Sequence record: MK373794.1
Strand: one strand, 5' to 3'
From: Escherichia phage vB_EcoS_HdK1
DNA length: 64,000 bases
Shown here piece by piece: positions 1 through 64,000 of this stretch. Under the pieces are notes generated by a model, which was not told the origin of the DNA, searched no databases, and saw only the letters and a program-made list of their open reading frames with translations. The translations under genes and the position numbers were made by a program. Every line of letters begins with the position of its first letter. Position 1 is the stretch's first letter.

Positions 1-105
1 TTTATATAAATACACACATATACACATTTTTACCTTATTTTTCATGCACTTACCTCCTTTCATTTCGTATATTAAGCGACAATATACGAGCAATATAAGA
101 AATAT

Positions 106-119
106 TTGTTGCGCAACAA
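106..119. repeat. Perfect 14-bp palindrome TTGTTGCGCAACAA in the non-coding control region (second copy at 60798..60811)
   Basis: Read directly from the sequence; lies in the ~1.07-kb non-coding region spanning 60336..60692 and 1..678. Confidence 0.6.
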
Positions 120-617
120 CGAGGCGCTCACAAGCTCGCGCACGCGCATAATGCGGGCACGCGGTCTAACACAAAAGAAAATTGAATTGCAAGCGATTTT
201 TGCTGAGGTAACTCTCGAAGCGAAAGCGATTTGCGAGTTTGAAATTTTGTAGCCCGAAAACGATTCTATTTTATGGTATAAATGTCGGATTTTTCGGTGA
301 AAGGTGGCTTTTCGGTGAGGTTGGGTGGCTGGGATCGGTGTAACTGGTAGCCCATAAAGCGAAAATAGCCGCGAAAACGGGGCACGCAGCGCGATTAAAT
401 GGTTGGATCAGTGTAAGGGTGGCGGTGAGGGGGCGAAAATGCCGCAAAATCGCTTACAGGGATGCAGGGAGTGGGCCGCTGTAAGGGCGTATAAGGCGAT
501 TAAATTGGAGTCTATGGTAATGTATGGAAGATGGATTTAGGCTCTTAGAGCGCGAATGGTGGAGCTATGGGTGAGGAATATGTGGTCAGCAGGGTAGCGC
601 GGGAGGTTATGCAGGTA

Positions 618-660
618 CAAAAACGAAAGCGCCCCGTTGGACTTCAACAGGGCGCGGATT
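618..660 (-). terminator. Rho-independent terminator ending the leftward early operon
   Basis: GC-rich inverted repeat GCGCCC..GGGCGC directly downstream of the stop of the 679..927 gene; on the minus strand it is followed by a T-rich tract. Confidence 0.55.
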
Positions 661-678
661 GTATAATGCTTTTAGAAG

Positions 679-927
679 TTATTTACTAGTTAATAATACC
701 GCCCAGGTATTATCTGGAAGCGTACCAACTCCGAGTATCTTAAACTGAAGCGACTTGTTCTGCATGTTGTAGTTGTCGAGTAACTCCTGGGCAGCCGCAG
801 CAGCGTTCGCTTCACCGTTCAGGTTGTAGTCGTTTGCAGTTATTGCACACATACCGAGACCGACCGCTTTGAAGCGCATACCTTTGGATTGAGTCGGTGC
901 AAGTGCTTTAACATGGATAGCGTTCAT
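679..927 (-). CDS. Hypothetical early protein, 82 aa (paralog family A)
   Basis: ORF track; shares an AAAA(Q/E)EL..F(K/E)ILG/SGG..P(D)..(W/Y)A pattern with the 1458..1703 product. Confidence 0.5.
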   Translation of the reverse strand: MNAIHVKALAPTQSKGMRFKAVGLGMCAITANDYNLNGEANAAAAAQELLDNYNMQNKSLQFKILGVGTLPDNTWAVLLTSK

Positions 928-956
928 ATTATTTATCTCCGTTACAATTTGAAAGG

Positions 957-1220
957 TTAGCAGTTTTTTAACAGGTTGATGAAGCCCACCAGCGTGGACG
1001 CTGTTGCAACCAGGCGGCCCATAGTATGCAGTTCCGCGTAAACTTTACCGTCGTCAAACACAGTTAAATAAACGTTAAGACCATTGCAACGGACGCGATA
1101 TTTGCGCGAGTTATTACCAAAAGTTTCCAGCTCTGCGGTGATAGTCGCAAGATTAGCTATACGTTTGCCGATAATGCGGCGAGTGATAGTGGACTGGTTT
1201 AATACTGTAGACATAATCAT
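957..1220 (-). CDS. Hypothetical early protein, 87 aa (paralog family B)
   Basis: ORF track; N-terminal motif STITRRIIGKRI matches SQITKRIIGKRL of the 2529..2835 product; AGAGG ribosome-binding site upstream. Confidence 0.5.
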   Translation of the reverse strand: MIMSTVLNQSTITRRIIGKRIANLATITAELETFGNNSRKYRVRCNGLNVYLTVFDDGKVYAELHTMGRLVATASTLVGFINLLKNC

Positions 1221-1245
1221 TTCCTCTGTTAACTATGCGAAGTGC

Positions 1246-1274
1246 ATATTATTGCCCACTGTTACTATGGGCAA
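1246..1274 (-). promoter_or_regulatory. Sigma70-like promoter (minus strand: -35 TTGCCC, 17-bp spacer, -10 TAATAT) overlapped by an inverted repeat (candidate operator)
   Basis: Hexamers and spacing read from the reverse complement; inverted repeat TTGCCCA-N9-TGGGCAA at 1252..1274 covers the -35 box and spacer; lies 26 bp upstream of the 957..1220 start. Confidence 0.45.
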
Positions 1275-1282
1275 TGTATATG

Positions 1283-1447
1283 TCACTCAGCGGACACATA
1301 TTCTAACGCTTCTGATAGTGTAGCGAAGTAACCATCGCTCACCAGATTAATAGCGTACTCAAGTTGATCGCGGGTCAGGTTGCGAAACTTGTTACGGATG
1401 TGATAGCAACGACCGCGATAAATAACCTGGAAATAGTTGCGTTCCAT
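1283..1447 (-). CDS. Hypothetical small protein, 54 aa
   Basis: Internal ATG of the 1283..1603 track ORF preceded by AAGGGG; the longer track ORF would overlap the neighbouring gene. Confidence 0.4.
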   Translation of the reverse strand: MERNYFQVIYRGRCYHIRNKFRNLTRDQLEYAINLVSDGYFATLSEALEYVSAE

Positions 1448-1457
1448 AATTATCCCC

Positions 1458-1703
1458 TTATGCAACGATGAACGCGTAACCGCTTTGATCCGGGAGTTCA
1501 CCACCGGAAAGAATTTCAAACTCAACGCCCGCTTTATCGCTGAACTTTTTGATAAGCTCTTCCGCTGCGGCGCGGTGGTTGCCGTAAACACCAAGATCGT
1601 CACGCCACGTGATAGTCAAGGAGCCGTTCCAACCTGTTGCTTTTACGCGCGGGTTACGGGTGGCAGTCGGGTTCATGAATTTTGTGATGATAGCTTGAGC
1701 CAT
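1458..1703 (-). CDS. Hypothetical early protein, 81 aa (paralog family A)
   Basis: ORF track; paralogous to the 679..927 product. Confidence 0.5.
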   Translation of the reverse strand: MAQAIITKFMNPTATRNPRVKATGWNGSLTITWRDDLGVYGNHRAAAEELIKKFSDKAGVEFEILSGGELPDQSGYAFIVA

Positions 1704-1708
1704 GATAA

Positions 1709-1894
1709 TTACTCCGGTAAAATTACAGTGACGTTAATATTTGCAAGGCGAGCGCACTCGCGGAAACCTTTTACATAAGCATCCATTTCGTCATAGGATG
1801 CGAAAGTTGCGTCCGGGACTGGTCCGTTGTTAATATTCACGCAATATTCGTGTTCGTCCAGGTCAACCCAACAAGTCAGAACGATAGTTTCCAT
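1709..1894 (-). CDS. Hypothetical small protein, about 61 aa
   Basis: Internal ATG (METIVL..) preceded by GGAGGG; acidic, Cys-containing. Confidence 0.4.
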   Translation of the reverse strand: METIVLTCWVDLDEHEYCVNINNGPVPDATFASYDEMDAYVKGFRECARLANINVTVILPE

Positions 1895-1972
1895 ATTATT
1901 TGCCCTCCGTATAATACAGACCCGCAACTATTGGAGCTCCGAAAACTAAGAAAGCTAATAAATAGAACATAA

Positions 1973-2452
1973 TTAGTTACCCCCTTTATTGTTGAGCCCG
2001 TTGAATTTACGCCATGCGTAGAATTCAATCGTTGCATTATTAATATTCCAACCATTAGCTTTCGCAAGGTCACGGACGTTACCAATAGTTGGCACACCAT
2101 CAGGCAACATATTATCCAGGGCATTCCAAACGTCTGCGCATTTACCTTTAATCGGGCGACGAACCCCGTTGCGCGTTTCGCTGCGCGTTTTGCTCTTGGC
2201 TGGAGCGACCGGAGCTTGTTGTGTGGTCACTTCCACGACAGTCGCTTTATCAGCTTCCACCAGATCGCTAGCTGCCTTATTAACCGCGCTTTCGCTGTAC
2301 CAGTAGCGACCACCGTCTTCGTGCGGTTCCTGGTGAATAAAGCTATTTGCTGTCGCAGTGTCCACATCCAGAACCTTTTTTAAGGCACGGCGAGCGTTAG
2401 ACATAGTGGCGAAGAAGCGAGCGTCTTTTGCTACGCGAGTGATAGTAACCAT
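1973..2452 (-). CDS. Hypothetical early protein, about 159 aa
   Basis: ORF track; start placed at the ATG preceded by GGAGAT; no recognisable catalytic motif. Confidence 0.45.
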   Translation of the reverse strand: MVTITRVAKDARFFATMSNARRALKKVLDVDTATANSFIHQEPHEDGGRYWYSESAVNKAASDLVEADKATVVEVTTQQAPVAPAKSKTRSETRNGVRRPIKGKCADVWNALDNMLPDGVPTIGNVRDLAKANGWNINNATIEFYAWRKFNGLNNKGGN

Positions 2453-2492
2453 TGTGAATATCTCCATGTTGTTCTAGCGGATTGCTAGTGGG

Positions 2493-2513
2493 AGCCCACT
2501 GTTACAATGGGCA
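2493..2513. repeat. Second copy of the conserved inverted-repeat element GCCCACTGTTAC(A/T)ATGGGCAA
   Basis: Near-identical to 1252..1274; both sit in intergenic gaps between leftward early genes. Confidence 0.55.
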
Positions 2514-2528
2514 ACCATTAGCACGCTA

Positions 2529-2835
2529 TTATTGTTGAATAGCTTTATCTATCATTGCGATGAAGCAGAACACAGACCAAAGGCTATTCGCTTGGCATAC
2601 TGCGCGACCATACATTACGCTATAAGAGCTGACAGTACCGTCCTCGTTAATGCGAATATATAACGCGGTGCTGGAATACTTTTCGTTGCCCGGGAGCATT
2701 ACTAAATACTCGTCGAAACCCCAATCCCCGTCGACTTTTTCCGCAGTAAGGCCCAGTTGGTGCAGTCGCTTGCCAATAATGCGCTTAGTAATCTGAGATT
2801 GGGACATGGAACGCGGTAAGTAGATAATGGACATA
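2529..2835 (-). CDS. Hypothetical early protein, about 102 aa (paralog family B)
   Basis: ORF track; start placed at the ATG preceded by AAGGGAG; paralogous to the 957..1220 product. Confidence 0.5.
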
Positions 2836-2909
2836 ATGCAATCTCCCTTCGGGTGAGGCGGGCGCGGAACCCGTGTCCCGCTTAACAACCCCCTTAACCC
2901 TACACAGTT

Positions 2910-2938
2910 ATAGTATGACAACGGGGTATCAGATGCAA
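2910..2938 (-). promoter_or_regulatory. Sigma70-like early promoter for the leftward operon (minus strand: -35 TTGCAT, 17 bp, -10 TACTAT)
   Basis: Hexamers and spacing read from the reverse complement, about 75 bp upstream of the first leftward gene. Confidence 0.4.
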
Positions 2939-3014
2939 CTATTATCTGCAATATTTTAGAACTTTTTTAGTTGTGTTTCATAATAATAACATCCGGGACT
3001 ATGCGGTAGATGGT

Positions 3015-3088
3015 GTGCCGGAAATACCAGGTAGCGCGAGCGTGCCGAAAATACCAGGTAACAGCACGCGCCGAACATACCAGGTAGC
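3015..3088. repeat. Three tandem ~27-bp iteron-like repeats (core ATACCAGGTA) followed by an AT-rich tract; candidate origin or protein-binding array (second copy 63707..63780)
   Basis: GTGCCGGAAATACCAGGTAGC / GTGCCGAAAATACCAGGTAAC / CGCCGAACATACCAGGTAGC read directly; AT-rich stretch at about 3130..3230. Confidence 0.55.
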
Positions 3089-3476
3089 ACATACATAGAC
3101 AGCACATAGTGGGCAGGTGGATAGTAACAGATGCAATTATACTGGACGGTACAGTATAGTCATGTAATAGATAGCATACTAATTAAATAAAAAATAATAA
3201 CGCGTGTAACAATAAACAACGTTACAGTAGAGCGCGCAACAGTCACATGACGTAACAATCACCTCACTGACGATCACGGGACGTTATAGTAACGCCGCGG
3301 GGCGGCTCTTAGATCTCTGCCAAGGATTCTAGACGTAAACATTGAATCGCCACTAGACTATTTACATCACAACCTCACTCCTCACACAATAATACATAGA
3401 ATTTAAATCCGTATATAAATACTCGAGATAGTATCTACATATTCGAGGATGAGTGCTCAATCATTGTAGGTTATAA

Positions 3477-3956
3477 ATGCGTATCAATTGGTGTGATTAT
3501 TTCTCTTACGAAGATGGTAGACTTTACTGGAAGGCCAGTAGAGGAAGAATACGAGTAGGTTCAGAAGCCGGAAGCGAGGACCAACAAGGTTACATTGTGG
3601 TCAGGTTAAACGGGAAAGATTATAAAGCCCACCGCATCATTTGGGAAATGCACTATGGGCCGATACCAGAAGGAATGGAAGTTGACCACATTTGGCATAA
3701 CCGAAAAGATAACCGGATTGAGAATCTGCGGTTAGTGACGCGTACAGGTAATGGGCGTAATCAGTCTAAATTTGCGACAAATACATCAGGTGTAACTGGT
3801 GTGAATTGGAATAGCCGGGCTGGTAAATGGAGAGCGGAAATTTATGTTGATGGAAAGCATATATCTCTTGGTTTATTCACAATCTTTAATGATGCTGTCT
3901 TAGCGCGTAAATCGGCCGAGGCTAAGTATGGTTTCCATAAAAATCATGGCGAGTGA
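3477..3956 (+). CDS. HNH endonuclease with a C-terminal AP2-like DNA-binding domain (homing-endonuclease type)
   Basis: HNH motif region AHRIIWEMHYGPIPEGMEVDHIWHNRKDNRIENLRLV, then a GVTGV..W.A.I pattern typical of AP2 domains. Confidence 0.8.
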   Translation: MRINWCDYFSYEDGRLYWKASRGRIRVGSEAGSEDQQGYIVVRLNGKDYKAHRIIWEMHYGPIPEGMEVDHIWHNRKDNRIENLRLVTRTGNGRNQSKFATNTSGVTGVNWNSRAGKWRAEIYVDGKHISLGLFTIFNDAVLARKSAEAKYGFHKNHGE

Positions 3957-4016
3957 GCATGTTAATCAACTTGCGTATCCTGTTATAGTTATTCCGTTAA
4001 CGTTAAAGGGGTTTAT

Positions 4017-5517: not shown

Positions 5518-6017
5518 CCGCAATTGCTTATCGTAATGGGATATTAGCTGTAGATCGACAGGTTACATGGGGTAATATTGCAACGACTACGAATAAAGTT
5601 CATACTATCAGTATTCCAGGGATTGGTCTGTGTCTTGTTGCCATGTCTGGTAAACTACGTGCTGTAGATGACATTGTAGAACATTTACAAACTACGTCAC
5701 GTGGACGCAAAGAACCTTTCTCAGATTTAAACCCAGATTCGCGTTATGGTATTGCTGTGACGCAGGAACTTGTCGTATATCCTATCTACGGGGATGGTAA
5801 ATTAGGTCTACCGGACACTAACGAATTTATTGCGGAAGGTAGTGCGTTTGAGTTCTTGATGGGTGCAATGGCGGGAGGTTGCACCGCCGAAGAGGCTGTA
5901 CGACTGGCGTGCGTATACTGCGACAGTTGTGGTCAAGGGGTTAAGTTCTATGACGTAGCTTATACTCTAAAGTGGCGCAGTGTAAAATCGAGGAGAAACC
6001 ATTTTGAAGAAGCCTAA
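5514..6017 (+). CDS. Putative Ntn-hydrolase peptidase (HslV/proteasome-like)
   Basis: N-terminus MTAIAYRNGILAVDRQVTWGN parallels the HslV N-terminus with Thr directly after the initiator Met; G-rich hydrophobic cores follow. Confidence 0.4.
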   Translation: MTAIAYRNGILAVDRQVTWGNIATTTNKVHTISIPGIGLCLVAMSGKLRAVDDIVEHLQTTSRGRKEPFSDLNPDSRYGIAVTQELVVYPIYGDGKLGLPDTNEFIAEGSAFEFLMGAMAGGCTAEEAVRLACVYCDSCGQGVKFYDVAYTLKWRSVKSRRNHFEEA

Positions 6018-10278: not shown

Positions 10279-11805
10279 ATGGCCATTTCTTCGGTTCATC
10301 CTAAATATTTACAGTTTAGTGCATTATGGTTGAAGATGCGGGACTGTTTCCTTGGAGCTGACCACGTTAAGGCTCAAGGTACTTTGTATCTTCCACCGAC
10401 ACCTGCTATGCGTTATGACGGTATGAAACCAGGCGAAGATGGCTATATCCGTTACAACGATTATAAAGACCGTGCAGTGTTCCCGGAGTATGTCGCTGAT
10501 GCAGTAGTTAATCACAGTGGTATGCTTCATAGTAAGTCAGCTATTATTCAGTTGCCTGCTGCAATGGAACCCCTTCGTCAATCTGCTACCAGCAAGCGCG
10601 AAGGTTTAGATCAGCTATTACGCCGCATAAACGAGCTACAGCTACGCGATGGTCGTCTTGGCCTTCTGTTGGAGCTGCCAGCGGGAAGTACCCGTGACAC
10701 GCTCCCGTACATTGCGGTATACGAGGCGTTAAGTATACGAAACTGGGACGACGGTGAGGATGATCTTGGTTCACTTAACCTTAACCTAGTTGTTCTGGAT
10801 GAGTCCAAAGAAGTAATGGACAAGACTTCATTTGATTGGACTTATAAAGTTCAATACCGAGTTCTTGTTCTTGGAAGCGCCAATGTAGATGAACCATCAG
10901 ATAGCGGTTACGTGTATGGGCAGTACATGACAGAACTGCTTCCTGGTGAAGATGACGAACCAGAAGAGGTGAGCTCTGACGTTGTAGTTCCTCAATATAA
11001 AGGTACTCCGCTTGAGCAGATACCTTTCGTATTTTGTAACGCTATGGACTTAGTCCCAGAACCAGATAAACCACCGCTACTCGCATTAGCAAACAGATGT
11101 ATTTCCATTTATCAGGGTGAAGCTGATTATCGACAGGCTTTGTTTATGCAGAGCCAGGATACGCTGGTTGTTCGTGGTGGTATTACGAACAGTGACGCAG
11201 TTGATGATAAAGCTCCTGTTCGTGTCGGTGCTGGTGCTCGTATTGATGTATCTCCGGACGGTGATGCCAAATACATTGGTACTAACTCGCAAGGTCTACC
11301 GGAGCAACGTAAAGCACTTGAAGCTGACCATAAAGACGCTCAGACCCGTTCCGGGCATTTAACCAGTGCAGAAAGTGCTTCTCAAGAGTCCGGCGACGCA
11401 CTGGAAACACGTCTTATCACTAAGACTGCTTCATTAGTTGGTATTGCTAAGACTGGTGCTGCTGCGTTAGAAAAAATCCTTCGTATTTGCGCTATATGGA
11501 TGGGATTAAATCCAGACGAAGTTAAAGTTACACCTAACCTTGACTTCAGCAAAGCTAATATTGAAGGCCAGGAATTGGTGCAGGTGCAGACTGCCAAGAA
11601 TCTTGGTGCTCCGTTATGTGCTGAGTCTATGCACAACTGGTTGCAGGATAAGGGGATGACCTCTTTGACGTTTGAAGAGGAGATGAAACGGCTTGAGGAA
11701 GAGCGCAAAGAATACCCGTTCCTTTTACCTCAAGTTAAAAACGATCAGAACCAGATCCAGCAAACAACTGGAGAACAGACGGGGAATGAAAACGCCGCTA
11801 AGTAA
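10279..11805 (+). CDS. Portal protein
   Basis: 508 aa, directly downstream of the large terminase; AAGGAG ribosome-binding site. Confidence 0.75.
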   Translation: MAISSVHPKYLQFSALWLKMRDCFLGADHVKAQGTLYLPPTPAMRYDGMKPGEDGYIRYNDYKDRAVFPEYVADAVVNHSGMLHSKSAIIQLPAAMEPLRQSATSKREGLDQLLRRINELQLRDGRLGLLLELPAGSTRDTLPYIAVYEALSIRNWDDGEDDLGSLNLNLVVLDESKEVMDKTSFDWTYKVQYRVLVLGSANVDEPSDSGYVYGQYMTELLPGEDDEPEEVSSDVVVPQYKGTPLEQIPFVFCNAMDLVPEPDKPPLLALANRCISIYQGEADYRQALFMQSQDTLVVRGGITNSDAVDDKAPVRVGAGARIDVSPDGDAKYIGTNSQGLPEQRKALEADHKDAQTRSGHLTSAESASQESGDALETRLITKTASLVGIAKTGAAALEKILRICAIWMGLNPDEVKVTPNLDFSKANIEGQELVQVQTAKNLGAPLCAESMHNWLQDKGMTSLTFEEEMKRLEEERKEYPFLLPQVKNDQNQIQQTTGEQTGNENAAK

Positions 11806-27200: not shown

Positions 27201-27418
27201 GATATAAATTAAAACTAACATTAGCAGGTCAATATAGGGAATATGTATTCTATCAAACTAATACTATGATTCCTATAAAATTCGGAGTAAGTGGAGTTAC
27301 AACACGTAGTATACAACTGATTCTGGATACAGATAGGGGTAGTGGTACACATATAGATATAATAGCACCGACATTAACAATAGGGAGAGCTAGTGGTACT
27401 TTCACTGTAAGTGGATAA
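24290..27418 (+). CDS. Tail tip / central fibre protein (lambda J-like) with hydrophobic N-terminal segment and FN3-like repeats
   Basis: 1042 aa; hydrophobic Gly/Ala-rich N-terminus; FN3-like segment (..YYWYVRAINAFGSS..); synteny. Confidence 0.75.
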   Translation: MPPAIIGAVVAIGAAAGAAAGIITATTALVIGIAASAAGALLTKTQSYNFDSYTPQSERKQVIRAAAASRTVIYGTTVSSGVLVFAEEEPGVQDPDKHGENYEKLTLVLALAGHELTEVGQVWLGDDPIGTYAGNASYKVYNNPTTVSQDMLNRCPSWKRDMIGKGICWMQLNLVYDSQKFPAGLPNVKCVKKGRKVLDPRTGQMVFSNNAALVILDYLRVYLKRGDDSILWDQFKEAANICDERVKNADDTFESRYTINGEFDMDEAPSKILEDMLDACGGELTYIGGKHGILVGAYYGPPELTLDTSCIAGDIKITPETAFKDRTNTITGTYIDPLQNYQEADFPSVSVSEWVQQDGQEITQDVDYRFVTSPYQAQRLANLTLKRKRIGRSIEIPCNMRGYRFRPGMYVYVDIPNIGMNKVEMRVIKWQFDPKGGVTVTVRQDFPDLWDDAIGKPVERPDLVDLPTGGAMQPQNLQYEVLQISDVVQGVLSWQNIMAVAYNNVVIKKDGTTVLTVQVPGQSTRITGLIRGAYTAHVKAVAYTGATSPEAYLEFNIQAPSAPTSVEVTQGYFAVTLKPKSADLANVSTQYDFWTSGETRLPSAAVDVVERQATRAGMGTTWTSEGLLNDHTYYWYVRAINAFGSSSFVEVAARCFTDAAGLIPQIDTEFKGTNTYKELMAEIGSVSDGVKSYVDDQIETSEGRLTQTIDTVQQSVVLVDGKVQQQGVTINEQGQLIDAQGKLIETNGQQINVVKATVQEVSKSVVDLEGNVNAQWGAKIQVDSKGQKYVAGIQLGMEGSGGAIQSYFMVNANNFAIYNPTNSTADLAFAVKNGQVFMKAAFIENGSIDNAKIGNYIQSNNYVAGSAGWKLNKAGDAELNNVVVRGTVYATNGRFTGEIQATSGTFKGTVEASRFIGDVVAIYTFPDILSIGTDISGEQYKVYTYNDSSSSPQARSVVFDCIVRTTNTTNGYKLKLTLAGQYREYVFYQTNTMIPIKFGVSGVTTRSIQLILDTDRGSGTHIDIIAPTLTIGRASGTFTVSG

Positions 27419-27423
27419 AAAAT

Positions 27424-27447
27424 AGGCGCTCTATCGAGCGCCTATAA
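27424..27447. terminator. Bidirectional terminator between the convergent J-like gene and the minus-strand secreted-protein gene
   Basis: Perfect 8-bp inverted repeat AGGCGCTC..GAGCGCCT with A/T-rich flanks on both sides. Confidence 0.6.
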
Positions 27448-27448
27448 T

Positions 27449-27739
27449 TTATTTACAACCTTCAGACCAACCAATACGGTTCATAGCCGGTGAGCAATCA
27501 GGTTTGACTTTTTTACCTTTCATCCACTCAGCTTTAGCTTTACCAGCGGTAGTACCTTCGTAGATGGAAGTCTGGTGCTCAATGTTACTTACTCCACCAG
27601 TATGCCCGCCTAATGATGAACCACTACCAGGACCACCAGCTCCACCATTACCTGGACCACCAGTACCACCGGAAGGACCAGTCGCGTAAGCAAAAGTAGC
27701 AGTCATAGAAAGGATAATGGCGCAGATTAAAGTCTTCAT
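27449..27739 (-). CDS. Secreted Gly-rich small protein with signal peptide; opposite-strand insert in the tail module (candidate superinfection-exclusion or moron protein)
   Basis: N-terminus MKTLICAIILSMTATFAYA with AYA cleavage context; Gly-rich segment; two C-terminal Cys; AAGGAG ribosome-binding site. Confidence 0.5.
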   Translation of the reverse strand: MKTLICAIILSMTATFAYATGPSGGTGGPGNGGAGGPGSGSSLGGHTGGVSNIEHQTSIYEGTTAGKAKAEWMKGKKVKPDCSPAMNRIGWSEGCK

Positions 27740-47465: not shown

Positions 47466-48386
47466 TTACTGTGCAGCGTCATCGCCTTCGGTGGAACGTT
47501 TCCACGGTGGAGTCTTGGTCTGAGCTGCTTTAGCGATATCGTCCTGGACTTCAGGTTCTGCATGGTTAGCAGTACCAGTGTTCTGAGCTTGAGTTTGCGG
47601 TTGCTCCGCTCCAGGCTGTACCTGCTGAGTTGCCCAGTTAGGCTGCTGTGTGGCTTGTTGCTGCGGCTGCTGCGCACCAGTAGCCCACGGTTGAGATTGT
47701 GCCGCGCTGTTAAAATCAACTGTTCCAGACTGCTGCTGTTGCTGTACCGGCTGCTGCGGCTGTTGTTGCTGCTGCGGCTGCTGGAACCCCTGAGTCTGAG
47801 GTTGTTGCTGCTGTTGCTGCGGCTGCTGCCCAAATGCGCCCGGGAAACCCTGCTGCGGTTGCTGCTGTTGTTGCTGAGCACCACCGAACGCACCGCCACC
47901 AAATGCTGGGGATTGTGCTGCCGCTGCCGGAGTTGATTTAGGCAGGTTAGCCATATCCGCCTTAGTTGCGTATACAACACCTTCCATATTATCAATTGCT
48001 TGATAAATCTGAGGTTCGTTGTTTGGCTCATAGCCGGGTTGCTGACGAACTTTCACTTTCAGGTTAAACGGGATACCGTGCAGTTGTTCAGTATCGTTCC
48101 AGACTGGAACTTTAACAGCACGAGACAGCTCTGCCAGTTCTTCCATTGCAATCTGTACAGCGACAGGGTTCGCGTTCTTGACGTTGTAACCGCCAAACAT
48201 TACACGACCAGCAAAATCACCCTGCATAATCTTAAACTGAAGATTCAGACGCGCACCGCCTGGAGTTTTAGTCGGTTTGATTTCAGAGTTTACAATCTGA
48301 ACAACATACCAACCAGCGGGCATCAAGCTGTTGTGTTGACGCTCTGCGTGTTGTCCAGCGTTAAATTGCATTCCTAAACCGGCCAT
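47466..48386 (-). CDS. Putative ssDNA-binding / recombination-associated protein with long Gln/Pro-rich low-complexity C-terminal region
   Basis: Structured N-terminal ~130 aa; then repeated Q and P with an acidic tail; adjacent to the Sak4-like ATPase. Confidence 0.45.
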   Translation of the reverse strand: MAGLGMQFNAGQHAERQHNSLMPAGWYVVQIVNSEIKPTKTPGGARLNLQFKIMQGDFAGRVMFGGYNVKNANPVAVQIAMEELAELSRAVKVPVWNDTEQLHGIPFNLKVKVRQQPGYEPNNEPQIYQAIDNMEGVVYATKADMANLPKSTPAAAAQSPAFGGGAFGGAQQQQQQPQQGFPGAFGQQPQQQQQQPQTQGFQQPQQQQQPQQPVQQQQQSGTVDFNSAAQSQPWATGAQQPQQQATQQPNWATQQVQPGAEQPQTQAQNTGTANHAEPEVQDDIAKAAQTKTPPWKRSTEGDDAAQ

Positions 48387-60545: not shown

Positions 60546-61309
60546 CAGCAATATACGAAACGGCGAAGCGAAGTGTATGAAAAATAAGGGAAAATTTCGA
60601 GAGTTGGGAGGTTTGTAGTGATTTATATTATTTATAAAGGGGTCTCGTGGGGTCGTCAGTAGACAACTCAAAAATAAAAAATCTTTATAAAATTTATATA
60701 AATACACACATATACACATTTTTACCTTATTTTTCATGCACTTACCTCCTTTCATTTCGTATATTAAGCGACAATATACGAGCAATATAAGAAATATTTG
60801 TTGCGCAACAACGAGGCGCTCACAAGCTCGCGCACGCGCATAATGCGGGCACGCGGTCTAACACAAAAGAAAATTGAATTGCAAGCGATTTTTGCTGAGG
60901 TAACTCTCGAAGCGAAAGCGATTTGCGAGTTTGAAATTTTGTAGCCCGAAAACGATTCTATTTTATGGTATAAATGTCGGATTTTTCGGTGAAAGGTGGC
61001 TTTTCGGTGAGGTTGGGTGGCTGGGATCGGTGTAACTGGTAGCCCATAAAGCGAAAATAGCCGCGAAAACGGGGCACGCAGCGCGATTAAATGGTTGGAT
61101 CAGTGTAAGGGTGGCGGTGAGGGGGCGAAAATGCCGCAAAATCGCTTACAGGGATGCAGGGAGTGGGCCGCTGTAAGGGCGTATAAGGCGATTAAATTGG
61201 AGTCTATGGTAATGTATGGAAGATGGATTTAGGCTCTTAGAGCGCGAATGGTGGAGCTATGGGTGAGGAATATGTGGTCAGCAGGGTAGCGCGGGAGGTT
61301 ATGCAGGTA

Positions 61310-61352
61310 CAAAAACGAAAGCGCCCCGTTGGACTTCAACAGGGCGCGGATT
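61310..61352 (-). terminator. Second copy of the early-operon terminator (same as 618..660)
   Basis: Within the terminal duplication. Confidence 0.55.
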
Positions 61353-61370
61353 GTATAATGCTTTTAGAAG

Positions 61371-61619
61371 TTATTTACTAGTTAATAATACCGCCCAGGT
61401 ATTATCTGGAAGCGTACCAACTCCGAGTATCTTAAACTGAAGCGACTTGTTCTGCATGTTGTAGTTGTCGAGTAACTCCTGGGCAGCCGCAGCAGCGTTC
61501 GCTTCACCGTTCAGGTTGTAGTCGTTTGCAGTTATTGCACACATACCGAGACCGACCGCTTTGAAGCGCATACCTTTGGATTGAGTCGGTGCAAGTGCTT
61601 TAACATGGATAGCGTTCAT
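61371..61619 (-). CDS. Duplicate of the 679..927 gene (paralog family A)
   Basis: Identical translation in the ORF track. Confidence 0.5.
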   Translation of the reverse strand: MNAIHVKALAPTQSKGMRFKAVGLGMCAITANDYNLNGEANAAAAAQELLDNYNMQNKSLQFKILGVGTLPDNTWAVLLTSK

Positions 61620-61648
61620 ATTATTTATCTCCGTTACAATTTGAAAGG

Positions 61649-61912
61649 TTAGCAGTTTTTTAACAGGTTGATGAAGCCCACCAGCGTGGACGCTGTTGCA
61701 ACCAGGCGGCCCATAGTATGCAGTTCCGCGTAAACTTTACCGTCGTCAAACACAGTTAAATAAACGTTAAGACCATTGCAACGGACGCGATATTTGCGCG
61801 AGTTATTACCAAAAGTTTCCAGCTCTGCGGTGATAGTCGCAAGATTAGCTATACGTTTGCCGATAATGCGGCGAGTGATAGTGGACTGGTTTAATACTGT
61901 AGACATAATCAT
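61649..61912 (-). CDS. Duplicate of the 957..1220 gene (paralog family B)
   Basis: Identical translation in the ORF track. Confidence 0.5.
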   Translation of the reverse strand: MIMSTVLNQSTITRRIIGKRIANLATITAELETFGNNSRKYRVRCNGLNVYLTVFDDGKVYAELHTMGRLVATASTLVGFINLLKNC

Positions 61913-61974
61913 TTCCTCTGTTAACTATGCGAAGTGCATATTATTGCCCACTGTTACTATGGGCAATGTATATG

Positions 61975-62139
61975 TCACTCAGCGGACACATATTCTAACG
62001 CTTCTGATAGTGTAGCGAAGTAACCATCGCTCACCAGATTAATAGCGTACTCAAGTTGATCGCGGGTCAGGTTGCGAAACTTGTTACGGATGTGATAGCA
62101 ACGACCGCGATAAATAACCTGGAAATAGTTGCGTTCCAT
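61975..62139 (-). CDS. Duplicate of the 1283..1447 gene
   Basis: Within the terminal duplication. Confidence 0.4.
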   Translation of the reverse strand: MERNYFQVIYRGRCYHIRNKFRNLTRDQLEYAINLVSDGYFATLSEALEYVSAE

Positions 62140-62149
62140 AATTATCCCC

Positions 62150-62395
62150 TTATGCAACGATGAACGCGTAACCGCTTTGATCCGGGAGTTCACCACCGGA
62201 AAGAATTTCAAACTCAACGCCCGCTTTATCGCTGAACTTTTTGATAAGCTCTTCCGCTGCGGCGCGGTGGTTGCCGTAAACACCAAGATCGTCACGCCAC
62301 GTGATAGTCAAGGAGCCGTTCCAACCTGTTGCTTTTACGCGCGGGTTACGGGTGGCAGTCGGGTTCATGAATTTTGTGATGATAGCTTGAGCCAT
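62150..62395 (-). CDS. Duplicate of the 1458..1703 gene
   Basis: Identical translation in the ORF track. Confidence 0.5.
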   Translation of the reverse strand: MAQAIITKFMNPTATRNPRVKATGWNGSLTITWRDDLGVYGNHRAAAEELIKKFSDKAGVEFEILSGGELPDQSGYAFIVA

Positions 62396-62400
62396 GATAA

Positions 62401-62586
62401 TTACTCCGGTAAAATTACAGTGACGTTAATATTTGCAAGGCGAGCGCACTCGCGGAAACCTTTTACATAAGCATCCATTTCGTCATAGGATGCGAAAGTT
62501 GCGTCCGGGACTGGTCCGTTGTTAATATTCACGCAATATTCGTGTTCGTCCAGGTCAACCCAACAAGTCAGAACGATAGTTTCCAT
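62401..62586 (-). CDS. Duplicate of the 1709..1894 gene
   Basis: Within the terminal duplication. Confidence 0.4.
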   Translation of the reverse strand: METIVLTCWVDLDEHEYCVNINNGPVPDATFASYDEMDAYVKGFRECARLANINVTVILPE

Positions 62587-62664
62587 ATTATTTGCCCTCC
62601 GTATAATACAGACCCGCAACTATTGGAGCTCCGAAAACTAAGAAAGCTAATAAATAGAACATAA

Positions 62665-63144
62665 TTAGTTACCCCCTTTATTGTTGAGCCCGTTGAATTT
62701 ACGCCATGCGTAGAATTCAATCGTTGCATTATTAATATTCCAACCATTAGCTTTCGCAAGGTCACGGACGTTACCAATAGTTGGCACACCATCAGGCAAC
62801 ATATTATCCAGGGCATTCCAAACGTCTGCGCATTTACCTTTAATCGGGCGACGAACCCCGTTGCGCGTTTCGCTGCGCGTTTTGCTCTTGGCTGGAGCGA
62901 CCGGAGCTTGTTGTGTGGTCACTTCCACGACAGTCGCTTTATCAGCTTCCACCAGATCGCTAGCTGCCTTATTAACCGCGCTTTCGCTGTACCAGTAGCG
63001 ACCACCGTCTTCGTGCGGTTCCTGGTGAATAAAGCTATTTGCTGTCGCAGTGTCCACATCCAGAACCTTTTTTAAGGCACGGCGAGCGTTAGACATAGTG
63101 GCGAAGAAGCGAGCGTCTTTTGCTACGCGAGTGATAGTAACCAT
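62665..63144 (-). CDS. Duplicate of the 1973..2452 gene
   Basis: Identical translation in the ORF track. Confidence 0.45.
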   Translation of the reverse strand: MVTITRVAKDARFFATMSNARRALKKVLDVDTATANSFIHQEPHEDGGRYWYSESAVNKAASDLVEADKATVVEVTTQQAPVAPAKSKTRSETRNGVRRPIKGKCADVWNALDNMLPDGVPTIGNVRDLAKANGWNINNATIEFYAWRKFNGLNNKGGN

Positions 63145-63220
63145 TGTGAATATCTCCATGTTGTTCTAGCGGATTGCTAGTGGGAGCCCACTGTTACAAT
63201 GGGCAACCATTAGCACGCTA

Positions 63221-63527
63221 TTATTGTTGAATAGCTTTATCTATCATTGCGATGAAGCAGAACACAGACCAAAGGCTATTCGCTTGGCATACTGCGCGAC
63301 CATACATTACGCTATAAGAGCTGACAGTACCGTCCTCGTTAATGCGAATATATAACGCGGTGCTGGAATACTTTTCGTTGCCCGGGAGCATTACTAAATA
63401 CTCGTCGAAACCCCAATCCCCGTCGACTTTTTCCGCAGTAAGGCCCAGTTGGTGCAGTCGCTTGCCAATAATGCGCTTAGTAATCTGAGATTGGGACATG
63501 GAACGCGGTAAGTAGATAATGGACATA
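63221..63527 (-). CDS. Duplicate of the 2529..2835 gene
   Basis: Identical translation in the ORF track. Confidence 0.5.
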
Positions 63528-63706
63528 ATGCAATCTCCCTTCGGGTGAGGCGGGCGCGGAACCCGTGTCCCGCTTAACAACCCCCTTAACCCTACACAGT
63601 TATAGTATGACAACGGGGTATCAGATGCAACTATTATCTGCAATATTTTAGAACTTTTTTAGTTGTGTTTCATAATAATAACATCCGGGACTATGCGGTA
63701 GATGGT

Positions 63707-63780
63707 GTGCCGGAAATACCAGGTAGCGCGAGCGTGCCGAAAATACCAGGTAACAGCACGCGCCGAACATACCAGGTAGC
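63707..63780. repeat. Second copy of the three tandem iteron-like repeats (same as 3015..3088)
   Basis: Within the terminal duplication. Confidence 0.55.
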
Positions 63781-64000
63781 ACATACATAGACAGCACATA
63801 GTGGGCAGGTGGATAGTAACAGATGCAATTATACTGGACGGTACAGTATAGTCATGTAATAGATAGCATACTAATTAAATAAAAAATAATAACGCGTGTA
63901 ACAATAAACAACGTTACAGTAGAGCGCGCAACAGTCACATGACGTAACAATCACCTCACTGACGATCACGGGACGTTATAGTAACGCCGCGGGGCGGCTC

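Follow-up and report, generated by a model that had tools for sequence, protein, structure and literature searches.

Processing hairpins between the cistrons of phage operons are a classic type of element, and the hairpin family presented here is new. It was found in Escherichia phage vB_EcoS_HdK1 (sequence record MK373794.1), in the 64,000-nucleotide stretch of DNA referred to below as the window, where two copies are located in gaps of a leftward, minus-strand operon of small genes. Three described systems are closest to it. The N leader of phage lambda contains the nutL boxB and a hairpin sensitive to ribonuclease III (RNase III); a small regulatory gene follows, and a divergent early control region is nearby. 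The early operon of phage T7 contains a series of RNase III sites (R-sites). The enzyme requires about two helical turns (~20-22 bp), with the cut no fewer than 11 bp from the loop; internal loops restrict the cutting to one bond, with AU-rich pairs beside the cut (PMC1540722). The cassettes of promoter and stem-loop called PeSLs, from the T4-type phages RB49 and phi1, combine sigma70 promoters of consensus strength with short G/C-rich stems acting as terminators (PMC2839356).

The element in the window resembles the T7 R-sites in being intercistronic in a polycistronic phage mRNA and in forming a hairpin of ~20-25 bp whose upper stem is separated by an asymmetric internal loop from a lower stem that is AU-rich and interrupted. 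With the lambda N leader it shares the position of a structured RNA before a small gene near a divergent control region, and in some relatives sites occur in both operons. With the PeSLs it shares a repeated stem-loop placed between a stop codon and the next Shine-Dalgarno sequence (SD), flanked by variable small open reading frames (ORFs), as well as G·T pairs in the stems and chimeric elements arising from recombination (PMC2839356). The best explanation of the element as a whole, with a probability of roughly 0.5, is a cis-acting intercistronic RNA stem-loop of ~55 nt, for which RNase III-type processing or stabilisation is the leading proposal. That the structure itself is a real, selected RNA element is very probable.

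The repeat and the full hairpin

The features of the two copies are as follows.
1252..1274, no strand assigned: inverted repeat TTGCCCA-N9-TGGGCAA, the apical stem of copy 1
2494..2514, no strand assigned: second copy of the 21-mer, the apical stem of copy 2; as RNA, 8 bp including one U·G, with a 3-nt loop
1237..1291, minus strand: copy 1 stem-loop, 21 bp (2 G·U), from RNA folding
2475..2528, minus strand: copy 2 stem-loop, 21 bp, from RNA folding
61929..61983, minus strand: duplicate of copy 1 in the right terminal repeat
63167..63220, minus strand: duplicate of copy 2 in the right terminal repeat

An initial annotation of this DNA described an inverted repeat of 21 bp recurring in intergenic gaps and again in a duplicated copy. 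The recurrence is borne out by a pattern search, which places the exact 21-mer GCCCACTGTTACWATGGGCAA at 1254-1274, 2494-2514, 61946-61966 and 63186-63206, and gives zero matches in 100 dinucleotide-preserving shuffles. Repeat family D5 from the repeat search agrees. There are only two independent copies per genome, because the other two arise from the terminal repeat. No further copy was found in the window by a fuzzy pattern search or by a covariance-model search with filters off. The second copy had been placed at 2493..2513, one position off. The proposed geometry of 7-bp arms around a 9-nt loop applies to 1252-1274 (TTGCCCA/TGGGCAA) but not to copy 2 (GAGCCCA...TGGGCAA), where the DNA arms consist of 5 perfect bp (2494-2512). 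The element is real, but its size is ~55 nt rather than 21, and the repeat corresponds to its apex only.

Folding of the leftward transcript had also been suggested. The two intergenic gaps were folded as minus-strand RNA, that is, in the sense of the mRNA, and both copies form long single hairpins. The RNA of copy 1 is GC-U-GAGUG-A-CAUAU-AC-AUUGCCCAU[AGUAACA]GUGGGCAAU-A-AUAUG-CACUU-C-GC. Folded within 81 nt of context, it has an energy of -25.8 kcal/mol (z -4.9 against shuffles), and its 53-nt core alone has -20.9 kcal/mol (z -4.7). The RNA of copy 2 is UAGCG-UGCUA-A-UGG-UU-GCCCAUUG[UAA]CAGUGGGC-UC-CCA-C-UAGCA-AUC-CGCUA, with an energy of -29.3 kcal/mol (z -4.3). Among 30,318 windows of 56 nt covering both strands of the whole genome, copy 2 is the most stable and copy 1 falls in the top 0.1%. 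The outer stems of the two copies are unlike in sequence, and both nonetheless pair.

In the general architecture, an apical stem of 8-11 bp is followed by a small asymmetric internal loop (in copy 1, AC on the 5' side and A on the 3' side), then by a middle stem, AU-rich and 4-7 bp long, then by a bulge, and finally by an outer stem of 4-6 bp located at or over the stop codon of the upstream gene. In copy 2 the internal loop is 2x2 and follows 8 bp. The helix, of ~21 bp or about two helical turns, ranges from 16 to 25 bp in total across 17 family members. In every copy the hairpin begins on or beside the stop of the upstream ORF, and 19-24 nt separate its end from the next AUG; the SD of the next gene lies ~10 nt past the hairpin and is left free. 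The genes on either side of the two copies are listed here.
1283-1450, minus strand: gene upstream of copy 1, 55 amino acid residues (aa); its stop UGA (1283..1285) lies inside the lower stem of copy 1
957..1214, minus strand: gene downstream of copy 1, 85 aa, phrog_13865, function unknown; SD GAGGA, AUG 22 nt past the hairpin base
2529-2834, minus strand: gene upstream of copy 2, 101 aa; its stop UAA (2529..2531) is directly 5' of the hairpin
1973..2452, minus strand: conserved 159-aa gene (NARRAL...IEFYxWRKF), phrog_17772, directly downstream of copy 2; start codon ~22 nt past the hairpin

A different fold was also considered, in which each gap forms two small hairpins in tandem, the repeat itself and a second one (UAUGC-loop-GCAUA or CUAGC-AAUCC-GCUAG). 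The appeal of this model is that three pairs change in a compensatory way between copy 1 and copy 2. It was rejected on the second copy of phage FritzHoffmann, a chimera whose 5' half is type-1 and whose 3' half is type-2. In the chimera the long hairpin is kept as a perfect one of 25 bp, with GAUUG/CAAUC in place of GAGUG/CACUU, while the alternative small downstream hairpin is destroyed. The tandem fold is possible as an alternative conformer.

Conservation of the structure and its strand

The region 600-3300 was compared with phage records by megablast. It matches 17 of them at 90-96% identity, all Nonagvirus (Queuovirinae), including HdSG1, JenP2, JenK1, 9g, SE1, BRET and the BASEL phages FritzHoffmann and ChristophMerian. 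In ~20 Nonagvirus sequences the stems are unchanged, and the substitutions are found in the triloop of copy 2 (UAA, UCA, UCG, UUA) or, in copy 1, at its A·A mismatch. Three versions of the eighth copy 1 pair are seen: A-U, G-C (loci L007 and L115) and U-A (FritzHoffmann).

Distant relatives were reached through the 159-aa protein and not through the element, by tblastn against phages and by a profile-based scan of metagenomes. A locus search with single proteins gave near-identical relatives only. The scan of IMG/VR anchored on the flanks (TAATGGTTG-N14-26-CCACTAGC) gave 76 loci; apart from L082, the new ones among them all proved to be chance matches. The identity of the 159-aa protein is 52-58% for Klebsiella phages Kpn2-P2 and K9PH25C2 and for Ec1-ASingh, 39% for Providencia phage PSTCR4 and 33% for Seuratvirus. 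All these groups hold the hairpin at the same places, with different stems, for example GCGCAUU/AGUGCGC, GCACAUUC/GAGUGUGC, GCGCCCAUC/GGUGGGCGU and GUGCUCAUC/GGUGAGCAU. The Seuratvirus copies have UUGCCUAGUUG/CGACUGGGCAA and ACUGCUCAUC/GGUGGGCAGU. Compared across the relatives, the stem exists in the compensatory versions GCCCA/UGGGC, GCGCA/UGCGC, GCACA/UGUGC, GCUCA/UGAGC and UGGGCA/UGCCCA. Further copies in related genomes, for which the initial annotation had envisaged a motif search, are thus present, and the hairpin is kept across several phage genera; its structure, strand and position are conserved in at least four phage lineages.

Three copies are present in PSTCR4, with apical stems UUGCGCAUU/AGUGCGCAA, AAUGUGUUC/GAGCACAUU and UUGCAUUUC/GGAGUGCAA. 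They are located at 2265-2317, 2575-2622 and 2777-2826 of that locus (L035), one in each of three successive intercistronic gaps. Their outer and middle stems are nearly identical and their apical stems quite different.

In Seuratvirus-like contigs an extra copy is found in the divergent operon, with the apical stem inverted (UGGGCA/UGCCCA). These copies, in the sense of that operon, are as follows.
918-968 of locus L121, minus strand of the locus: divergent-operon copy
967-1017 of locus L124, minus strand of the locus: divergent-operon copy
1069-1119 of locus L128, minus strand of the locus: divergent-operon copy
948-996 of locus L126, minus strand of the locus: divergent-operon copy

Covariation was counted for nine apical pairs on a sequence-only MAFFT alignment of 16 distinct type-1-like relatives. 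In this alignment 95.1% of the cells are paired and seven of the nine pairs change on both sides. None of 500 shuffles reaches the observed value on any of five measures, and slid controls are 33-49% paired. Only the apical stem could be counted on an unbiased alignment, because the outer and middle stems, whose arms differ in indels, could not be put in register across genera by MAFFT; they were folded for each sequence instead. The type-2 copies (12 sequences) are 91.7% paired with three compensatory pairs. One of these pairs is seen as C-G, G-C and A-U, and in locus L117 the 3-bp UGG/CCA is changed to CAG/CUG. The covariance model built from the first alignment gave 52 matches, 27 of them distinct, in 44 loci. 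The alignment of the 27 is 93.4% paired, with 9 of 14 pairs compensatory; since it was fitted to the model, it leans towards the structure and is considered as secondary evidence. A search of Rfam with positions 1-4000 on both strands gave no match at E<=10. The hairpin family is undescribed, and it has no Rfam entry.

The changes within the stems are also informative about the strand. One-sided changes from C-G to U·G are common in the 27-member alignment (for example in 7, 5 and 11 sequences at three pairs), and the stem interior seldom contains a non-pair. Read on the opposite strand, each such one-sided change would give an A·C mismatch. When both strands were folded, the sense strand gave the more stable structure in 15 of 17 members, with a mean advantage of 2.9 kcal/mol, and the covariance-model match to copy 1, at 1238-1288 on the minus strand, scores 62.1 bits in the sense direction against 18.9 bits in the antisense direction. 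In the Seuratvirus-like contigs, the hairpin is oriented with transcription in each of the two divergent operons. The G·U asymmetry, the sense stability, the model scores, the orientation and the stop-to-AUG geometry, taken together, indicate that the hairpin is an element of the mRNA. An RNA hairpin had been the second choice of the initial annotation, and it is upheld here by the covariation, the preference for the sense strand, the order of stop, hairpin, SD and AUG, and the orientation.

Possible functions of the hairpin

As to function, RNase III-type processing or stabilisation is proposed tentatively, from the dimensions of the helix and its likeness to the T7 sites. The hairpin would be carried on the polycistronic mRNA of the leftward small-gene operon, and host RNase III would bind the two-turn helix and cut at the internal loop, as at the T7 early-operon sites. 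The predicted cuts are near 1249-1251 for copy 1, in its 3' arm, and near 2488-2493 for copy 2. Such cutting would split the polycistronic transcript, leaving an upstream segment that ends in a protective 3' hairpin and a downstream segment that starts ~35 nt before its AUG. In this way cleavage could set the relative stability and expression of the flanking genes.

The dimensions of the element agree with the rules for RNase III. The helix is 21 bp in both window copies, and in type-1-like copies an apical stem of 9-11 bp is followed by the asymmetric internal loop. The stem adjoining the internal loop is always AU-rich, and the bases of the loop are also conserved across genera. The T7 early sites R0.3, R0.5, R1, R1.1 and R1.3 were folded likewise. 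In these sites the upper stem has 9-13 bp and the interrupted lower stem ~9-10 bp, with an asymmetric internal loop between them; the helix adds up to 20-25 bp, and the cut is on the 3' side of the internal loop. R0.5 is particularly similar to copy 1: both have GCUGAGUGA, GAGUG/CACUU and the 5' AC internal loop, and the upstream stop codon is inside the lower stem. The differences are that the 3' side of the internal loop has 1-2 nt here and 3 nt in T7, and that the conserved T7 motif CCUUUAU|GAU is absent here. Overall there is no sequence similarity to the T7 sites. The likeness to T7 is architectural and not a homology, because the family covariance model misses the T7 sites.

The nine-base identity GCUGAGUGA, which reads Ala-Glu-stop, is located at 1426-1434 of the T7 record (L132) and at 1291-1283 of the window. 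It may be due to chance or convergence.

Several points weigh against processing by RNase III. The T7 cleavage coordinates used here are what we take to be those of Dunn & Studier 1983, and the T7 record carries no such features; as already stated, the family model does not match the T7 sites. Literature searches yielded no cleavage data and no mapped transcript ends for any Nonagvirus. The base-pair preferences known as the uR1.1 box rules concern a distal box (UA, UG) and a proximal box (GC; AU/UA; AU; AU/UA) (PMC1540722). Type-2 copies have an invariant U-A and U·G beside the loop, resembling the canonical distal box, and type-1 copies are without them; the register relative to uR1.1 is ambiguous. 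In copy 2 the predicted position of the proximal box falls in the 2x2 mismatch. The 3' arm GGUGGGCAAUAAUA(A/U)G and the bases of the internal loop are conserved beyond the need for pairing, which might just as well point to a specific protein other than RNase III as the partner. In addition, copy 1 and Seuratvirus copy A carry a sigma70 match of 8-9 of 12 positions.

The match at copy 1 is the one from which the initial annotation derived a promoter. The candidate -35 is at 1274-1269 and the candidate -10 at 1251-1246, on the minus strand. The latter sequence also has a place in the RNA hairpin.
1246..1251, minus strand: TAATAT, candidate -10; in the RNA, it supplies the closing U of the apical stem, the A on the 3' side of the internal loop and, in the AU-rich middle stem, four 3'-strand bases

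The arrangement TTGCCC-17-TAATAT is indeed present, but it is weak, with 8 of 12 positions, and it is under the threshold of the promoter scan. Copy 2 has no promoter match, in agreement with the earlier remark that it lacks a good -10. In the family, a match of at least 8 of 12 is limited to 13 of the 27 type-1-like members, those of Nonagvirus copy 1 and Seuratvirus copy A; the 12 type-2 members have none, and therefore a promoter cannot be what conserves the family. The match in Seuratvirus copy A is 9 of 12, with the 17-bp spacing kept though the loop lengths differ. The TTG of the -35 is replaced in the Klebsiella-phage copies, in Seuratvirus copy B and in the PSTCR4 copies (GCGCCC, GTGCTC, CTGCTC, AATGTG), with the complementarity kept. 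Some extra, weak promoter activity may exist at copy 1.

Two other promoter assignments were tried and rejected. A sigma54 promoter, with GG-N10-GC in TGGGCAATAATATGCA and TGGGCTCCCACTAGCA, has its GG in the stem, where it covaries (UGCGC, UGUGC, UGAGC), and the spacing of the -24 box is wrong. A -35 at GTGACA/TTGACA upstream of the repeat has no -10 at 16-18 bp, a position that falls in the variable loop. The scan for intrinsic terminators lists neither copy, and no U-tract follows the stem; the 3' flanks of the two hairpins are UAAUAUGCAC and UCCCACUAGC.

Other explanations were weighed as well. An uncut, passive stem-loop could serve as a barrier to 3'-5' exonucleases or to RNase E scanning, or as a polymerase pause, and give the segments different stability. 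It would be supported by the same fold and covariation as RNase III processing, and hairpins right after stop codons are a common layout for stabilisers. However, a barrier needs neither the two-turn length nor the conserved internal loop at a fixed distance nor the AU-rich middle stem kept across genera, and this explanation appears unlikely. An RNA site for a phage-encoded protein, either a nut-like antitermination site or a translational operator, is improbable to a similar degree. The 159-aa protein would be its possible partner, since a copy always precedes the corresponding gene and the protein has an invariant N-terminal NARRAL motif. The conservation of the 3' arm and of the internal-loop bases across genera agrees with such a site, and the copies in both divergent operons of Seuratvirus-like contigs recall lambda nutL and nutR. 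On the other hand, the apical stems differ widely within PSTCR4 and the loops are hypervariable, so that recognition would have to proceed via the shape and the internal loop. The 159-aa protein has no Pfam or PDB-chain match, its PHROG families are all of unknown function, and nothing in it suggests RNA binding. In contrast to lambda, there is no boxA, no boxB-like 5-bp stem with a pentaloop and no Rfam match. The more specific proposal, that the hairpins are sites for a phage RNA-binding regulator, with the 159-aa protein as the best candidate and host RNase III not the relevant partner, is a little less probable still. If true, it would reveal an undescribed N/nut-like antitermination or autoregulatory translational circuit in Queuovirinae and related siphophages, with sites in both divergent operons.

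A PeSL-like cassette would combine an internal sigma70 promoter, a spacer stem-loop attenuating the read-through from upstream and a recombination site. Copy 1 has the same layout as a PeSL, the matches in Nonagvirus copy 1 and Seuratvirus copy A are kept at the 17-bp spacing, and the gene content on either side of the element varies among relatives, as in the FritzHoffmann chimera and the ChristophMerian deletion. Such a cassette is nevertheless doubtful, to about the same extent as the passive stem-loop. PeSL promoters match the sigma70 consensus, whereas the match here is weak or absent in most members: 14 of the 27 type-1-like and all 12 type-2 members have no acceptable one, and all keep the hairpin. 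The helix has two turns with interruptions and no U-tract, in difference to an intrinsic terminator and to the short G/C-rich stem of a PeSL. The least probable explanation by far is the one preferred by the initial annotation, an operator on double-stranded DNA that overlaps the -35 box and would bind a dimeric repressor. The palindrome does overlap the promoter-like match at copy 1, and symmetric changes of half-sites could in principle mimic compensatory changes. Yet a distance of 16 bp, about 1.5 helical turns, separates the half-site centres, no promoter is present at copy 2, and the half-sites differ between the copies of one genome (PSTCR4). The asymmetries are not random but overwhelmingly G·U on the sense strand, the complementarity runs ~15 nt further on each side through sequence that is non-homologous between the two copies, and the orientation follows transcription. 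The weak hexamers, the replaced TTG, the different stems within one genome and the G·U asymmetry all argue against an operator or promoter as the cause of the conservation.

Genomic setting and significance

The sequence 1-3308 is repeated directly at 60693-64000, according to the repeat search. The physical end of the genome has been mapped in 9g by Kulikov et al. (PMC4276943), and it corresponds to position ~3308 of the window, which is the repeat boundary. These two observations mean that the window is a complete Nonagvirus (9g-like) genome with a direct terminal repeat of 3,308 bp. The leftward operon consists of seven or eight small ORFs of unknown function on the minus strand, from 2834 down to 679, and it is closed by a terminator.
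629..655, minus strand: intrinsic terminator with a GC-rich stem of 11 bp and a U run after it; the HdSG1 annotation also lists it as a terminator

The operon and its control region are located wholly inside the terminal repeat and are therefore present twice per virion DNA, a layout resembling that of phage T5, whose terminal repeats carry the pre-early genes. Neither Pfam nor PHROGs nor PDB sequences gave a functional clue when searched with the operon proteins. In every lineage examined, the 159-aa gene is found directly 3' of a hairpin copy. Two pairs of paralogous genes, with unknown functions, are present: 679-927 and 1458-1703 (phrog_3199), and 957-1214 and 2529-2834 (phrog_13865). This region was therefore built partly by internal duplication, and the two hairpin copies suggest likewise.

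Other structures were observed near the operon. A G+C-rich hairpin at 2845-2900 on the minus strand (-25.8 kcal/mol) is among the five most stable local folds of the genome. Its place is in the 5' leader of the operon, shortly before the SD that serves the first gene (2834), and it is kept with small changes in the metagenome relatives L107-L111. Three direct repeats of the 19-nt unit GTGCCGGAAATACCAGGTA, spaced by 27 and 26 bp, lie at 3015-3086 (and 63707-63778) in the divergent control region between the two operons, and several short GTTAC/GTAAC palindromes are found at 3180-3300, beside the boundary of the terminal repeat. These repeats and palindromes could be regulator, packaging or replication sites. 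Just past the boundary, at 3477-3956 on the plus strand, there is a homing-endonuclease-like gene with HNH_3 and AP2 domains. The first rightward gene in HdSG1, JenP2 and 9g is an unrelated ORF of 288 nt, and JenP1 has a homing endonuclease elsewhere in the region.

Two further features are distant from the operon. Irregular GCTGCTGTT/GCGGCTGCT repeats extend over ~230 bp at 47650-47880 (repeat families D2 and D4) and are presumably coding sequence of low complexity. At 27405-27460 there is a symmetric hairpin, AAAAATAGGCGCTC-TATC-GAGCGCCTATAATTTATTT, with A and T runs on its flanks, which looks like a bidirectional terminator near mid-genome. The junction of the early and late halves is placed near the middle of the genome, where this hairpin is located, in the 9g paper (PMC4276943).

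Among the relatives, the gene content changes exactly at the hairpin elements. In FritzHoffmann (L014) the chimeric type-1/type-2 element, at 3381-3431, is beside an extra ORF. In ChristophMerian (L015) a deletion of two genes ends at the element (~2139-2200), and in locus L010 unrelated genes are found on both sides of it (~5615-5665). In locus L007 a truncated remnant ORF (MQDIHVKALA...) starts inside the element, at 11697-11790. The gene at 957-1214 is present in some relatives and absent in others. The hairpin repeats may serve as recombination points, as PeSLs do.

The Nonagvirus and Seuratvirus phages have been studied mainly for the 7-deazaguanine modification of their DNA, and they are used in the BASEL collection. 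To our knowledge, nothing is known about gene regulation in either genus. The element described here gives them a well-supported family of cis-regulatory RNA and corrects the reading as promoter or operator, which is relevant to the annotation or engineering of these phages. In the operon of the terminal repeat, the family delimits expression units, and it predicts RNase III-dependent transcript ends at defined nucleotides. The coincidence of the elements with break-points of gene content may help to explain the mosaicism of this region.

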